In this document: positions 9,216 through 54,378 of the stretch, piece after piece | Numbering within the stretch: position 1 is the first letter of the stretch | Layout of the letters: the number at the start of each line of letters is the position of its first letter | From: a bacterium | GTDB lineage: Bacteria > Patescibacteriota > Patescibacteriia > UBA1558 > GWA2-36-10 | Direction: 5' to 3' | DNA length: 64,000 nt | NCBI GenBank assembly: GCA_018653315.1 | Contig: JABIAL010000037.1 | Coordinates: 1,487-65,486 of the forward strand | Notes under the pieces: generated by a model | What the model was told of the DNA's origin: nothing | Databases searched by the model: none | What the model saw: only the letters and a program-made list of their open reading frames with translations | Translations under genes and position numbers: made by a program

Positions 9216-9239
9216 AGCCCCGATTAAAGCATCGGGGCT
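9216..9239 (-). terminator. 9-bp GC-rich hairpin AGCCCCGAT-TAAAGC-ATCGGGGCT, with a U-tract on the minus-strand side
   Basis: Inverted repeat read directly. The A-run 9211-9215 sits 5' on the plus strand, so this is a minus-strand intrinsic terminator. It lies 230 nt downstream of the pepA stop and immediately after the pth stop. Confidence 0.6.
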
Positions 9240-11827: not shown

Positions 11828-12274
11828 TTATTTGCTTGCTCCGCCTTTGGCGGATTCAATTGTTACGCCCATTTGTTTAGCAGTACCAGCAATAATCTTT
11901 TTGGCTGCCTCTATGTCATTAGCGTTTAGATCTGGCATTTTCTTCTCAGCAATTTCAGTCAATTGAGCATCGGTCAATTTACCTACTTTTTCTTGTAATG
12001 GTTTACCTGACCCTTTTTTAAGACCAGCTTTGTCTTTGATCATTTCAGATGCAGGAGCAGTTTTTAAGATAAAATCAAAACTACGATCATCGTAAATACT
12101 TAACTCAACAGGAACAAGTTCTCCCATTCTATCTTTTGAATCTGCGTTAAATCTAGTACAAAACTCCTGGATGTTCAAACCATGGGGCCCTAAAGCGGTA
12201 CCGACTGGCGGTGCTGGAGTAGCTTTTCCGGCTTGAATCTGTAACTTAACAATCTGTTTTACTTCTTTTGCCAT
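11828..12274 (-). CDS. rplK: 50S ribosomal protein L11
   Basis: [39 protein letters not shown] is the canonical L11 sequence. Confidence 0.9.
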
Positions 12275-14950: not shown

Positions 14951-17029
<2,079 letters not shown>

Positions 17030-50009: not shown

Positions 50010-52955
50010 TTATTTCTTGTCCGCCTTTGGCGTGATTAATCCTAAAATAATCTCTTCACCATTAATCTTTTGAACCTTCTGTCTTTCTGGACTAGTATCT
50101 ACTTTTTCCAAAGATCCAGCTGAGGTGCTTTTTATAATTTCTTCTTTATACTTTTCTATTACAACTAATAAATTCTTTGATTCTGTTTGATAGGTCTCTA
50201 CTGGTTTATCTGCTGGTTTTAATCCTGATTCTTTACGTAAAACATTTATAAAACGAATCAACTCTCTTAATATTCCTTTTTCTTTTAAATCATCGGTTAA
50301 ATTGGTATCTAAAGATACTTTAAAATCATTTACTTCTGTAACAATCCAGCCATCAGCAGTTATCACATCATCTATTATCACTGACTCTACATTTAACTCA
50401 TCACTTAAAATATTCAAATAATCTTTATTTTTAGCTAAACCAGATTTATCCGCTACTTTTAAGGTAGACAAAGGCTGACGTACTTTGATGCCAGCTTCAG
50501 CTCGAGCAGCATGAACACTTTCAGCAATCTGACGAACCATATCCATTTTAGCTAAAACTTCTTGATCTATTAATTTCTGATCAGCTTTCATCCATTCTTC
50601 TAAATGAACAGATGTTTTATTATCAAACTCCTGCCAAATAATATCCGCTGTCATTGGTGTAAATGGAGCGATCAATTTAGCAAATTGTTTTAAGATGAAC
50701 GCCAAGGTCTCAATGGCTTGTTCCTTGTCTTTCAAATCATCACCTTTGAAACGATCACGACTACGTCTTAAGTACCAGGTAGATAGCTCATCAACAAAAT
50801 CAAATAAAGGACGAGTAGCTTTAACTAGATTATATTCTTTCATTGCTTCTGTCACCTCTTGATGCAATTTATAAAACTTAGCAACAATCCATTTATCTAA
50901 ATCATTATTTAATTTTGCTAATTTATCTCCGTCTATTTTAGCTTCACCTTTAAACATCTGATAAAAACTAAAAACATTTTGTAGTAAGCCAATAAAACGA
51001 CGATAAGTAGTCTGTAAATCTTTTTCTACAAAAGAAAGATTCTCAGCCAACATCACCGGAGAAGATAATAAGTACAAACGTAAGGCATCGGCGCCATATT
51101 TTTCCATTATGTCATTTGGATCTGGATAGTTTTGTAATTTCTTGGCCATTTTCTTACCATCTTCAGCTAAAACAATCCCATTAACAATAACATTATCAAA
51201 AGCTTGTGAACCTTTAATGGCGACAGCTAAAATATGCATGTAATAAAACCAAGCTCTAGTTTGATCTAAGCCTTCAGCAATAAATTTGGCTGGAAAGTTA
51301 TCATTAAACCTATCTTCGTTTTCAAATGGGTAATGCATTTGAGCATAAGGCATTGAACCAGAATCAAACCAAGTATCCAAAACATCCGGCACCCGTTTCA
51401 TAGTGCTGCCACCTGCCTGCCGGCAGGCAGGCATTGAACAAGCAAAGGTGATTTCATCAACTATATGTTTGTGTAAATCTGTTACTTTTTGACCGCTGGC
51501 TTTTTCTAAATCGGCAACCGATCCAAATACTACTTTTTCCTCACACTTATCACACTCCCAAATTGGCATCACGGAAGCCCAAAATCTTTGACGAGAAATC
51601 GACCAATCACGAGCTCCTTCTAGCCATTTTCCAAAACGGCCTTCTTTAATATGATCTGGAGTCCAATTTATATTCTTAGCGGTTTTTTGGGCCTTGTCTT
51701 TGACTTTAGTGACTGCTACAAACCAAGATGAAGTGGCATAATTCAATAATGGAGTTTCACAACGCCAACAATGAGGGTAGCTATGCTCATATTTTGTTTT
51801 ATCAAATAGCAAACCCTTAGCTGCTAAATATTTAATAATAGCTACGTCTGTAGATTGCACATCGTCTATTGGTTTGACGTGCAAACCCTTAAAATCTGTG
51901 ACTTCTTCTTTGATAATCCCATCCATGCCAAGATGTTGCACAAAAGGCAAATTTTTTTCTTTGCCTAATCTCATATCATCTTCACCAAAAGCAGGAGCGA
52001 TATGAACCACGCCCGTTCCTTCTTCAGTAGTCACAAAATCAGCCGTTACAATCTGCCAGCCATTATTTACATTTTCTGAATCTTTATCTTTAGAGTAATA
52101 ATCAAAAAGTGGCGTATATTTCTGAGCAATTAATTTCTTACCTTTAAATTCTTCGACGATTTTATACTCACCAAATTTATCTGCAAATTCTTCTAATAAT
52201 TCTTTGGCTAAGATAAATTTTTCTTTTTCTGATTCTACTTTTATGTAATCAATATTTTCTCCGACAGCCAAAGCAACATTACCAATCAAAGTCCAAGGAG
52301 TTGTCGTCCAAGCCAAAACATATGTGCCTGGCTCATCAACTAACTCAAACTTAGCAGTCAGTGATAAATCTTTAATATCTTTGTAGCCTTCAGAAACCTC
52401 TTGTTGAGATAAAGTAGTTTCACAACGAGGACAAATATGCATCGAGCGATAATCTTGATAAATCAAATCTTTATCCCAAAGCTCTTTGAATACCCACCAA
52501 ACAGATTCCATATATTCTAAATCCATCGTACGATAGGCATTTTTCATATCTGCCCAACGTCCCATGCGAGTGACAGTTTTCTCCCATTCAGCAACATAGC
52601 TCAAAACTTTTGAACGACAAAGTTCATTAAACTTAGCCACGCCCATTTCTTCAATCGCTTGTTTAGATTTGGAACCAAGTTCTTTTTCGACAATATTTTC
52701 CACTGGCAAACCATGACAATCCCAACCCCATTTTCTCTCCACTCTATATCCTTGCATAGTCCAAAAACGAGGGACCACGTCTTTCATGATATTACCTACT
52801 AAATGTCCATAATGCGGAGTTCCAGTAGCAAATGGAGGCCCATCATAAAAAAGATAATCACCATTAGGCGCTGGTTTATCTAAAGATTTCTGAAAAGTTT
52901 GATCACTTTCCCAAAAATCCAATATTTCTTTTTCCCGATCTTTGAAATTAGTCAT
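50010..52955 (-). CDS. ileS: Isoleucyl-tRNA synthetase
   Basis: HIGH variant (PHYGHLVGN), KMSKS variant (KMAKK), editing domain, 981 aa. It contains an in-frame copy of the 20-nt GC-rich palindrome at 51412-51431, encoding PACRQAG in a Cys knuckle. Confidence 0.95.
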   Translation of the reverse strand: MTNFKDREKEILDFWESDQTFQKSLDKPAPNGDYLFYDGPPFATGTPHYGHLVGNIMKDVVPRFWTMQGYRVERKWGWDCHGLPVENIVEKELGSKSKQAIEEMGVAKFNELCRSKVLSYVAEWEKTVTRMGRWADMKNAYRTMDLEYMESVWWVFKELWDKDLIYQDYRSMHICPRCETTLSQQEVSEGYKDIKDLSLTAKFELVDEPGTYVLAWTTTPWTLIGNVALAVGENIDYIKVESEKEKFILAKELLEEFADKFGEYKIVEEFKGKKLIAQKYTPLFDYYSKDKDSENVNNGWQIVTADFVTTEEGTGVVHIAPAFGEDDMRLGKEKNLPFVQHLGMDGIIKEEVTDFKGLHVKPIDDVQSTDVAIIKYLAAKGLLFDKTKYEHSYPHCWRCETPLLNYATSSWFVAVTKVKDKAQKTAKNINWTPDHIKEGRFGKWLEGARDWSISRQRFWASVMPIWECDKCEEKVVFGSVADLEKASGQKVTDLHKHIVDEITFACSMPACRQAGGSTMKRVPDVLDTWFDSGSMPYAQMHYPFENEDRFNDNFPAKFIAEGLDQTRAWFYYMHILAVAIKGSQAFDNVIVNGIVLAEDGKKMAKKLQNYPDPNDIMEKYGADALRLYLLSSPVMLAENLSFVEKDLQTTYRRFIGLLQNVFSFYQMFKGEAKIDGDKLAKLNNDLDKWIVAKFYKLHQEVTEAMKEYNLVKATRPLFDFVDELSTWYLRRSRDRFKGDDLKDKEQAIETLAFILKQFAKLIAPFTPMTADIIWQEFDNKTSVHLEEWMKADQKLIDQEVLAKMDMVRQIAESVHAARAEAGIKVRQPLSTLKVADKSGLAKNKDYLNILSDELNVESVIIDDVITADGWIVTEVNDFKVSLDTNLTDDLKEKGILRELIRFINVLRKESGLKPADKPVETYQTESKNLLVVIEKYKEEIIKSTSAGSLEKVDTSPERQKVQKINGEEIILGLITPKADKK
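51412..51431. repeat. Perfect 20-nt palindrome CCTGCCTGCCGGCAGGCAGG, copy 1, inside the ileS CDS
   Basis: Identical to the 54359-54378 copy and nearly identical to 53202-53222. Confidence 0.75.
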
Positions 52956-53201
52956 ATTTACAGTATTTCTGATTAATTAGTAAGATTTATTCTAGCCTAA
53001 AAGCATATATTTTACAATATTTACCTTTCGGCTACGCTCAAGGTGATTAAAAGTCAAAAAAATATGGAATATAAGCTATGCCACCAATTTTTTTTGGTCT
53101 TTTTACATAACCTGGGCTGGTAAACCCTATGTTTACACTTGGCTTTAACAAAAATTTTGTCTAGTTTCTTATGCATATTTTATTTAGCTTGTTGTTTACT
53201 C

Positions 53202-53222
53202 CCTGCCTACCGGACAGGCAGG
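53202..53222. repeat. Palindrome variant CCTGCCTACCGGACAGGCAGG, copy 2, intergenic at the ileS-proximal edge of the MerR cassette
   Basis: 7-bp arms identical to the other copies. It is followed by more GC-rich hairpins (GCCTTC-AGAGCC-GAAGGC at 53244-53261). Confidence 0.7.
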
Positions 53223-53280
53223 CGCCTCCCGTTCAGGGCCTAAGCCTTCAGAGCCGAAGGCTGACGGATAATATTTAAAA

Positions 53281-53319: not shown

Positions 53320-53574
53320 TTAAAACAATTGTTTAATCTCCTTAACAGATAATCTTTTTTTGCTTTGGAGATATTCTATTTTTTGTAGCGTGCGAATAGC
53401 TTTATCTGGACTATAAAGACGATAGCCGCCTTGAGTGCGCCCATCTTCTTTTAATAAACCTTCGCGAGTATAAAAATTAATAGCCGACGGCAAAACATCG
53501 AACATCGTCGCCAATGTACCGATTTTTACTAATTTGCTACTCGCTTGTTTGTTTCCAGTTTTTATTTTCCGCAT
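53320..53574 (-). CDS. Small MerR-family HTH DNA-binding protein (DNA-binding domain only, 84 aa)
   Basis: VKIGTLATMFDVLPSAINFYTREGLL...GGYRLYS matches the MerR HTH and wing pattern. No effector domain is present. Confidence 0.7.
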   Translation of the reverse strand: MRKIKTGNKQASSKLVKIGTLATMFDVLPSAINFYTREGLLKEDGRTQGGYRLYSPDKAIRTLQKIEYLQSKKRLSVKEIKQLF

Positions 53575-53727: not shown

Positions 53728-54159
53728 TTACTTAGGAACACCGCCAACCCAATAGCCACCAGGAACGCCTTCTTTGCTACGATCAGCAGCTATACGATGC
53801 TCACCGTTCTTGTTATGAAACGAGGCATAGCACCAATGCCCTACATCTTTCCAATGAACGCCATTAGGATGATCGTCAGCAAAATTAGGATCATTAATAT
53901 TAACTTGTATTTGAGCATAAGGATCGTGGATTAAACCATGCTCATTCAACACACCCTCCAACTCATCTTCACTACAGCGACCAACCACCTCGAGGAAAGC
54001 AACTCTGACAAACTCACCTTCGCCTCTAGGTATAGACCCAATAACGGCGTCGGATATACATTGTTGTTCTCGTCCAATAGACTTAAACAGTTGTTGTGGC
54101 GTCTTGTTACGATCTACGCGAACATCAACGTAGATCAAACCTTGATTTGTTGTTGGCAT
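53728..54159 (-). CDS. Hypothetical protein of 143 aa, His-rich. Composition is foreign (about 44% GC by eye). First gene of the 2-gene cassette, upstream of the MerR-like gene.
   Basis: Long ORF with an SD-like AAGGGG 7 nt upstream and a TTGACA-17-TATATT promoter. No family recognised (…DDHPNGVHWKDVGHWCYASFHNKNGEHRIA…). Confidence 0.5.
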   Translation of the reverse strand: MPTTNQGLIYVDVRVDRNKTPQQLFKSIGREQQCISDAVIGSIPRGEGEFVRVAFLEVVGRCSEDELEGVLNEHGLIHDPYAQIQVNINDPNFADDHPNGVHWKDVGHWCYASFHNKNGEHRIAADRSKEGVPGGYWVGGVPK

Positions 54160-54295: not shown

Positions 54296-54357
54296 TCCAG
54301 CCTCCCCTTAACAGGGGAGGTTTTTTAGATTAAAAAAGTCCCCCTGTTAAGGGGGAT
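54296..54357. terminator. Pair of mirrored GC-rich hairpins (CCTCCCC-TTAACA-GGGGAGG then TTTTTT, and TCCCCC-TGTTAA-GGGGGA preceded by AAAAAA), forming a bidirectional terminator
   Basis: The two stems are reverse complements of each other around an A/T-rich centre. They terminate the minus-strand 193-aa gene and insulate the cassette. Confidence 0.6.
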
Positions 54358-54358
54358 T

Positions 54359-54378
54359 CCTGCCTGCCGGCAGGCAGG
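54359..54378. repeat. Perfect 20-nt palindrome CCTGCCTGCCGGCAGGCAGG, copy 3, at the dprA-proximal edge of the cassette
   Basis: Identical to the ileS-internal copy. Confidence 0.75.

Follow-up and report, generated by a model that had tools for sequence, protein, structure and literature searches.

The 64,000-nucleotide stretch of DNA considered here (the window) belongs to contig JABIAL010000037.1 of a patescibacterial genome assembly (GCA_018653315.1). Its overall GC content is 33.9%, and its only 20-nt segments with at least 80% GC are three copies of two short hairpin words: a 20-nt perfect palindrome (CCTGCCTGCCGGCAGGCAGG), here called PAL, and a 21-nt relative, VAR (CCTGCCTACCGGACAGGCAGG). 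PAL occurs twice and VAR once in the 64 kb. One PAL copy lies inside ileS, the gene for a type-2 isoleucyl-tRNA synthetase (IleRS); the other is intergenic, and VAR lies in the spacer between ileS and a gene for a MerR-family helix-turn-helix (HTH) protein (Table 1). Both words recur in many other bacteria and metagenomes, and PAL is probably the hairpin partner of a small GIY-YIG nuclease.

Table 1. Features of the window, in order of position
Feature	Position	Strand	Remarks
ileS	50010..52955	-	Type-2 IleRS, 981 aa; host gene of PAL copy 1
PAL copy 1	51412..51431		Inside ileS; minus-strand translation P-A-C-R-Q-A-G; in-frame TGC is the second Cys of C-x-C
Predicted compensating base (+1)	51434..51435	-	Either of two T (A on the coding strand, TCAATG)
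Second small GC-rich insertion	53023..53056		Contains CACCTTGAGCGTAGCCGAAAGGT; MerR-ileS spacer; absent from L126
GC-rich mosaic block	53198..53267		70 nt; VAR and two further small hairpins; MerR-ileS spacer; absent from L126
VAR	53202..53222	+	21 nt, non-palindromic; 7-bp stem as in PAL; loop ACCGGAC
MerR-family HTH gene	53320..53574	-	84 aa; conserved syntenic neighbor of ileS
143-aa open reading frame	53728..54159	-	Only gene here missing from relatives; own promoter-like and terminator-like sites
Inverted GC-rich hairpin pair	54301..54356		CCTCCCCTTAACAGGGGAGG and TCCCCCTGTTAAGGGGGA; T-run after each; together a bidirectional terminator-like module that adjoins PAL copy 2
PAL copy 2	54359..54378		Intergenic; lengthened to 54382 by a third CAGG

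The three copies in the window

A first-pass annotation of the window had reported an identical 20-mer at the two PAL positions and a variant at the third, and had read the copy in ileS as P-A-C-R-Q-A-G. The two PAL copies are exact matches, with none expected by chance (100 dinucleotide-preserving shuffles of the window contained none), and the peptide is encoded as described, on the minus strand within the 981-aa open reading frame (ORF). The variant stands where it had been placed; it is a separate word that recurs exactly in at least 120 unrelated metagenome contigs, not a decayed copy of PAL. Because the two words have the stem CCTGCCT/AGGCAGG in common and intermediates between them are known (CCTGCCTGCCGGACAGGCAGG, and a form with the loop ACCGGC), PAL and VAR are relatives. 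Their RNA folding energies are -13.9 and -10.6 kcal/mol, respectively.

Five independent assemblies of this organism (ENA, NCBI GCA_018657795.1, JGI; 99.97-100% identity) agree on the positions of all three copies, which are therefore not the chimeric assembly joins that the first-pass annotation had considered. Rfam returned no hits at gathering thresholds across the 64 kb (no tRNA, rRNA, riboswitch, or other known RNA), and at E<=10 the 51.3-54.5 kb stretch gave chance matches only. The remaining hairpins of the window (CCTCCCCTTAACAGGGGAGG, GCCTTCGGCTCTGAAGGC, and others) show no exact recurrence across genomes in 1.95 Mb of fetched loci.

The copy inside ileS

The IleRS sequences closest to that of the window are annotated as Nomurabacteria, Komeilibacteria, and Parcubacteria. 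A four-cysteine cluster (C-x-x-C ... C-x-C) is conserved in this clade, which we take to be the second zinc site known from Thermus IleRS, with the cysteines presumably its ligands; eukaryotic IleRS sequences in a PDB sequence search are without this Cys pair. PAL lies between the two cysteines of the C-x-C pair. The corresponding segment of 59 aligned orthologues reads F-x-C-x(1-2)-C-G-G-T-M-K-R or holds some other insert, and that of the window reads FAC-SMPACRQAG-GSTMKR, 7 aa longer than in the nearest relatives. At the level of codons, an 83%-identical relative has TGT AAG TGC GGA GCT ACG ATG where the window has TGT TCA ATG CCT GCC TGC CGG CAG GCA GGT GGC AGC ACT ATG. The alignment that had been proposed as a check thus identifies the PACRQAG segment as an insertion, and orthologous ileS genes do not encode these nucleotides.

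Removal of PAL alone from ileS shifts the reading frame and brings a stop at aa 524. Removal of PAL together with one A of TCAATG leaves a 974-aa ORF that reads FACSCGSTMKR and agrees with the relatives in both length and pattern. The simplest history would be that 20 nt entered the predicted ancestral sequence (GCTTGTTCATGTGGCAGCACTATG) at its second Cys codon (TG|T) and that a single compensating base mended the frame. The in-frame TGC of PAL would then have taken over the role of the disrupted cysteine, within a surface loop that would now be 7 aa longer. An AlphaFold2 model of the enzyme (mean pLDDT 78 overall, 74-83 around the insert) neither favors nor contradicts a tolerated loop. Splicing of PAL from the ileS mRNA was considered and is ruled out by the compensating base.

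The same site also holds other inserts. In another clade of the candidate phyla radiation (CPR; loci L128-L130, with the IleRS proteins P0019, P0032, and P0041), a different GC-rich insert lies between the same cysteines (TRLDSARQE, ACCCGCCTTGACTCGGCGAGGCAGGAG), so this loop either has taken up inserts on more than one occasion or accommodates them unusually well. A GC-rich word of the TRLDSARQE insert, CGCCTTGACTCGGCGAGGCAGG, also lies beside VAR in an unrelated metagenome contig (L193).

Recurrence across phyla and within protein genes

When one genome per species was scanned (596 Gb, with about 0.5 chance hits expected), exact PAL turned up in at least 120 species-representative contigs from at least nine phyla. 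Hosts among the matches listed include Patescibacteria, Bacteroidota, Omnitrophota, Planctomycetota/PVC, and Gamma- and 'Delta'-proteobacteria, as well as Bdellovibrionales (Bdellovibrionota), Thermodesulfovibrionales (Nitrospirota), Chloroflexi (Chloroflexota), and others. Several are cultured isolates of Bacteroidota (Winogradskyella, Flagellimonas, Longitalea, and Flavivirga), and exact PAL is also present in 35 viral stretches. Throughout, the sequences flanking PAL and VAR are unrelated. A text search across about 8 million papers returned no occurrence of the 20-mer, of its sub-strings, or of the peptides LPAGRQ, PACRQAG, and CLPAGR. One 29.5-kb viral contig of 60% GC (IMGVR_UViG_3300037242_000417; L151, L158, and L159) has six exact PAL copies, several of which cap longer repeated hairpins (GTGTCGCCC-PAL-GGGCGGCAC).

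PAL has no stop codon in any frame, and VAR only one; coding insertions of PAL can therefore survive provided that the added bases sum to a multiple of three. In other genomes, PAL stands in frame within Pfam-confirmed genes for GatB, ribosomal protein S6, an RfbB-like dehydratase, ScpB, and FtsK, and the dehydratase holds a nested double copy that adds exactly 15 aa. VAR lies in long ORFs in 32 of 123 copies, nearly always in the sense orientation (30 of the 32) and mostly in the frame that reads LPTGQAG (26 of the 32). This frame bias points to strong filtering for a peptide that proteins may tolerate. The locus L060 (2751-4892) encodes a type I restriction specificity (HsdS-like) ORF with a GIY-YIG domain in frame between its target-recognition halves, and the junction of the two carries PAL, read as PACRQAG.

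Insertion as a precise unit

PAL enters its targets as an exact block of 20 nt and leaves no target-site duplication. In more than 12 tRNA-derived sequences (L015, L037, L085, L099, L106, L118, L162, L155, L288, L289, L295, L297, and L298), perfect D or anticodon arms reappear once precisely these 20 nt are excised, and none of the sequences has a target duplication. Flanking direct repeats of at least 6 nt accompany 4% of copies and are mostly 7-mers of heptamer tandem arrays, so that target-site duplication was rejected as a feature of the element. The flanks show a preference for A at -1 and -3 and T at +1 and for nothing else. PAL prefers a position after A and the loops of pre-existing hairpins, including tRNA D and anticodon arms, other hairpin repeats, and its own copies. 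Beyond tRNA genes, three settings recur for both PAL and VAR: nested within their own copies, in the loops of other GC-rich hairpins (among them hairpins resembling the Ssn-related motif, SRM; GGATTCCCG..CGGGAATGAC), and between heptamer repeat units.

The two words often edge or interrupt heptanucleotide tandem repeats (e.g., CACAGAA.., AATTACG.., and CTACAAA.. at L233, L246, L268, L272, L275, L101, L082, and other loci), and these arrays are reminiscent of the STRR arrays of cyanobacteria. In a viral tRNA-Met (L155, 2239-2330), PAL occupies the variable loop, and ARAGORN still calls a 92-nt tRNA with PAL as an extra arm; the tRNA may be functional in this enlarged form. The splicing of PAL from functional tRNAs in general was rejected, as most PAL-bearing pieces are 5' fragments beside an intact copy of the gene (ARAGORN and inspection).

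GIY-YIG nuclease genes and tRNA genes beside PAL

All-against-all clustering of the ORFs from 155 PAL loci yielded a single non-generic family that recurs near PAL: single-domain GIY-YIG proteins of about 80 aa (PF01541; ORFs of 72-98 aa). The other recurrent neighbors were generic only (histidine kinases, ABC ATPases, ClpP, and thioredoxin reductases). Of 14 GIY-YIG ORFs identified, seven are no more than 300 nt from a PAL copy, and PAL, unlike VAR, is four-fold enriched within 300 nt of tRNA genes. The full arrangement is tRNA(1..x) - PAL - tRNA(x+1..y) - spacer - nuclease ORF - intact tRNA, and exact PAL lies directly upstream of the nuclease ORF at nine loci (L037, L162, L118, L106, L288, L289, L295 on both sides, L297, and L298).

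The reverse test began from seven homologues of one such nuclease, fetched blind to PAL. An intact tRNA gene (Asn, Arg, or Leu) adjoins all seven. Exact PAL lies in the upstream tRNA fragment of five, from two phyla: Shapirobacteria, Dokdonia, Colwellbacteria (with PAL fragments on both sides), Croceiramulus getboli (with a tandem duplication), and Namhaeicola litoreus. Of the remaining two, one has a 16-nt PAL core and the other a different hairpin.

Taxa with this nuclease clade (CPR and Bacteroidota) are also the main hosts of PAL among the matches listed. NCBIfam has no name for the nuclease, whose nearest solved relatives are UPF0213 proteins (1zg2 and 1ywl) and the structure-specific endonuclease Slx1. 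A scan of viral contigs for it returned two loci only. Within the same broad class, Ssn enzymes (CDD family cd10448) are single-domain GIY-YIG nucleases that cut only single-stranded DNA beside their cognate hairpin repeats, called NTS or SRM (Chenal et al. 2025, PMC11893778).

The nuclease genes form a recurrent unit with tRNA genes. In CPR bacteria and Bacteroidota, GIY-YIG genes of 72-98 aa lie directly upstream of an intact tRNA gene (L037, L106, L118, L162, L288, L289, and L295-L298). They are preceded by a duplicated 5' part of the same tRNA, whose D or anticodon loop is interrupted by PAL (e.g., L297, 840-1520). This tRNA-GIY-YIG unit looks like a tRNA-targeting selfish element, and no description of it was found.

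Genes and spacers around the copies

The gene order DprA - hypothetical protein (162-182 aa) - MerR (79-84 aa) - IleRS - RecO - CLIPPER-like - TGT is kept in five relatives (L126-L130), and PAL and VAR are absent from all five. MerR is therefore a fixed neighbor of ileS and not a cassette. Alignment of the spacer with that of L126, the 83%-identical relative, reveals two clean GC-rich insertions between MerR and ileS, the larger of which includes VAR. PAL copy 2 is situated 25 nt past the stop codon of a 170-aa gene (minus strand), directly before the terminator hairpin of that gene; the true terminator is the adjacent hairpin at 54356-54339. Copy 2 and VAR thus occupy 3' or intergenic spacers, and the nearest relative is without either word there. 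In an intrinsic terminator test, the ileS copy and VAR were without a T-run, and copy 2 scored weakly, on the plus strand only, where no gene precedes it.

The 143-aa ORF, absent from the five syntenic relatives, has a promoter-like site at 54261-54233 and a terminator-like site at 53701-53670. It had no Pfam hit, and a word-indexed protein search returned only the ORF itself; its 674 distant uncharacterized relatives mostly measure about 200 aa and carry additional N-terminal sequence. PAL lies at one edge only, the far edge being an ordinary terminator, and VAR, on the far side of MerR, is separated from the ORF by the syntenic MerR gene. No integrase or recombinase lies nearby.

Other features of the window bear on its small genes and hairpins. 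A 40-aa ORF (MHKKLDKIFVKAKCKHRVYQPRLCKKTKKNWWHSLYSIFF; 53054-53176, minus strand) between MerR and ileS is conserved at the protein level in L126 (MKRKLDKVFSKAKCKHRVYQPRPCKKSKKSWWQSLYSLFF) and may be a real small protein or an ileS leader peptide. The GC-rich hairpin word TCCGCCTTTGGCGGA (11840-11854) occupies the final codons (..SAKGG..) of the ORF at 11828-12274 (minus strand). This 15-mer occurs seven times in six unrelated fetched loci, against 0.004 expected, and a sibling word, TCCGCCAGCTGGCGGA, occurs eight times in seven. Isolated GC-rich hairpins also lie amid AT-rich DNA at 9217-9238 and 16887-16907 (GCCCCGATTAAAGCATCGGGGC and CCCGGTCTTTTACGAACCGGG). The GC skew is negative nearly throughout positions 1-64000, so the window probably falls within a single replichore.

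Proposed mechanism and its alternatives

With high confidence, the three copies can be regarded as insertions that this lineage has acquired, and the family as mobile and horizontally shared. PAL and VAR are probably non-autonomous, selfish, GC-rich hairpin elements of 20-21 nt, with PAL as the hairpin partner of an Ssn-like GIY-YIG nuclease. The partner would be the clade of single-domain proteins of about 80 aa (Ssn/UPF0213/Slx1-like), and the nuclease, acting on single-stranded hairpin DNA, would be the likely agent that moves PAL in trans. The three copies in the window would be solitary dispersed products, analogous to NTS/SRM around ssnA or to REPs around RAYT genes. The further claim that the nuclease is the enzyme that mobilizes PAL is based on association, and we give about equal weight to its being true and to its being false.

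Several points weigh against this explanation. GIY-YIG enzymes cut DNA by hydrolysis and, to our knowledge, do not catalyze strand transfer; a host ligase or a repair step would thus have to complete the insertion. The nuclease gene adjoins about 4-5% of PAL copies, VAR has no association with GIY-YIG or tRNA genes, and the 64-kb window contains neither a GIY-YIG ORF nor a tRNA gene. The reverse test included just seven homologues. The SRM consensus (HGTCWYN(0-2)YYVSBRHN(0-5)WNVSBRGN(0-2)RNCYNB) overlaps 0 of 289 PAL and VAR copies. Finally, a 20-nt insertion in an essential gene such as ileS is awkward, as it needs simultaneous or very rapid compensation by one base.

A more ambitious form of the same idea can be put forward tentatively, and we lean somewhat against it. 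No smaller mobile DNA would be known than PAL, a 'nano-transposon' made up of nothing but a 20-nt hairpin, which the structure-specific nuclease would cut and the host would religate into single-stranded hairpin loops. It would travel between phyla, probably with phages and the tRNA-targeting nuclease element, and would time and again furnish essential proteins with one 7-residue loop (LPAGRQ, LPTGQAG, or PACRQAG) and tRNAs with extra arms.

It is also conceivable, though unlikely, that the mini-hairpins are mobile and are moved by another agent. This could be a HUH/RAYT- or IS110-type enzyme in trans, or host replication and repair (hairpin excision and re-ligation, or template switching), with the GIY-YIG/tRNA elements merely favored as hairpin-loop targets. 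PAL and VAR do occur in the loops of many other hairpins, between heptamers, and inside themselves with no nuclease gene nearby, and the lack of a nuclease or tRNA link for VAR fits such an agent as well. Two GIY-YIG/tRNA elements have a different hairpin, one at the same D-loop site (L039) and one in a 3' tRNA fragment (L290). However, exact PAL in the upstream tRNA fragment of five of seven blind homologues is too regular for opportunistic hits. Moreover, IS200-type Y1 transposase ORFs were found by jackhmmer in 2 of 275 loci, adjacent to PAL in neither and absent from the window, and no other specific family recurs.

The chance that the hairpins are host-selected stem-loops, kept for function as terminators, mRNA stabilizers, or protein-binding sites, is small. 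They are stable when folded, a canonical terminator comes directly after copy 2 in the 3' untranslated region, and VAR is situated downstream of MerR. Yet there is no T-run behind PAL itself or behind the ileS copy, and the copies are also found in coding sequences, in tRNA pseudo-fragments, and in each other. Convergence on identical 20-21-mers with unrelated flanks in at least nine phyla is impossible. Individual copies may have been exapted secondarily.

The first-pass annotation had also considered recombination sites, attC-like or targets of a recombinase, at the edges of a cassette with MerR, as well as gene conversion between the loci; both are now very improbable. Copies 1 and 2 are identical, and copy 2 does abut one edge of the lineage-specific 143-aa ORF. 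However, the MerR-ileS synteny in five PAL-free relatives largely refutes a cassette, and the ordinary terminator at the far edge of the ORF, the different 21-nt word at the third position, and the lack of an integrase or recombinase nearby also speak against it. Gene conversion is unnecessary: at least 120 other species and 35 viral stretches carry this 20-mer between unrelated flanks, and the flanks in the window share no homology that would support it. An assembly, library, or contamination artefact has a negligible probability: a constant short palindrome in many metagenome assemblies is suspicious at first, and a contig of the same species (L124) ends at the hairpin cluster, but the five assemblies agree, cultured isolates and complete or curated genomes also carry PAL, its coding copies are frame-compensated, and diverged variants and nested copies occur.

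Significance

REP, NTS/dRS3, SDR, and similar hairpin repeats abound, and their movement has mostly been inferred. PAL can be traced across phyla with single-base precision, through filled sites and reconstructable empty sites in tRNA genes and essential proteins, with a candidate enzyme next door. Three questions thereby become testable. The first is whether small GIY-YIG nucleases specific for single-stranded DNA mobilize their hairpins. The second is how a 20-nt insertion in an essential gene is accommodated, for which ileS provides an example in which the Cys codon of the element would replace the disrupted cysteine. The third is what share of recurrent 7-aa insertions (LPAGRQ and LPTGQAG) in the proteins of streamlined organisms, such as Patescibacteria, these words account for. 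If the 'nano-transposon' idea is true, it would represent a general and previously unnoticed source of micro-insertions in bacterial proteins. For annotation, PAL and VAR words yield spurious small ORFs, odd tRNA calls, and contig breaks.

Comparison with known systems

The suggestion made at first pass of a REP/MITE-like element that can sit in coding DNA was essentially right about behavior, although PAL falls outside the formal definitions of REP, MITE, and SRM. The REP/REPIN-RAYT system (PMC3116915, PMC3733652) likewise has short, GC-rich, non-autonomous palindromes, which are extragenic, reach high copy number within one species, form mosaic clusters, and are presumed to be mobilized in trans via single-stranded hairpins. 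Unlike REP and REPIN, PAL is a perfect palindrome without the GTAG/CGTC tag, has copies inside genes, occurs at low local density (3 in 64 kb, VAR included), and has no associated RAYT gene (2 of 275 loci, non-adjacent); REP families are species-specific and are not found across phyla. MITEs derive from an insertion sequence, have terminal inverted repeats and a fixed target-site duplication, and are about 50-500 bp long, in contrast to the 20-21 nt of PAL and VAR, which also have no target-site duplication. Integron attC sites are imperfect palindromes of 57-141 nt at the 3' end of mobile promoterless cassettes, with an integrase nearby, whereas PAL is 20 nt long, the 143-aa ORF has its own promoter-like site, and no integrase is present.

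The SDR4-6 repeats of Nostocaceae are reportedly hairpin-capable repeats of 21-27 nt that have been argued to be mobile, that occur nested, in heptamer repeats, and in conserved sequences, and for which no enzyme is said to be encoded in cis. They have been reported from Nostocaceae only (Elhai et al. 2008; cited in PMC3116915 and PMC5861425). The sequence of PAL differs from theirs, and neither a nuclease partner nor a tRNA architecture is known for SDR. The palindromic elements of Rickettsia (RPE; Ogata et al. 2000) are said to be selfish and to lie in frame within coding genes, including essential ones, where they are reportedly translated as surface peptides. PAL resembles them in its in-frame coding behavior, by analogy and not by membership. 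Those elements, reviewed in PMC10969869 and PMC1779305, are 100-150 bp long and limited to Rickettsia, and their sequence is not found across phyla as that of PAL is.

Mitochondrial GC clusters (in yeast, PMC8811140 and PMC4464245; in sponges, PMC2800124) are likewise short GC-rich palindromes that invade AT-rich genomes. They are intergenic and only occasionally lie in genes (e.g., var1), and their mobility has been inferred from presence/absence polymorphism. Unlike PAL, they are organellar, 30-60 nt long, lineage-specific, and typically flanked by an AT/TA target duplication, with no known GIY-YIG or tRNA partner.

The Ssn system itself provides both likenesses and differences. NTS/SRM repeats flank the nuclease gene and have hundreds of dispersed copies in several phyla (PMC11893778), and Chenal et al. 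noted an NTS-ssnA-NTS layout resembling an insertion sequence (IS) and proposed an IS-like origin (PMC11893778). PAL differs as a perfect 20-nt palindrome wedged in tRNA-gene fragments (PMC11893778 never mentions tRNA), as one exact word common to distant phyla, and in the share of PAL and VAR copies that lie in long ORFs (8-26%, versus 2% for NTS). In both systems, hairpin repeats of 20-50 nt border a small single-domain GIY-YIG gene on one side or on both, solitary repeats lie scattered through the genome in large numbers, and the pairing extends across phyla; PAL and VAR, moreover, often lie inside the loops of SRM-like hairpins.

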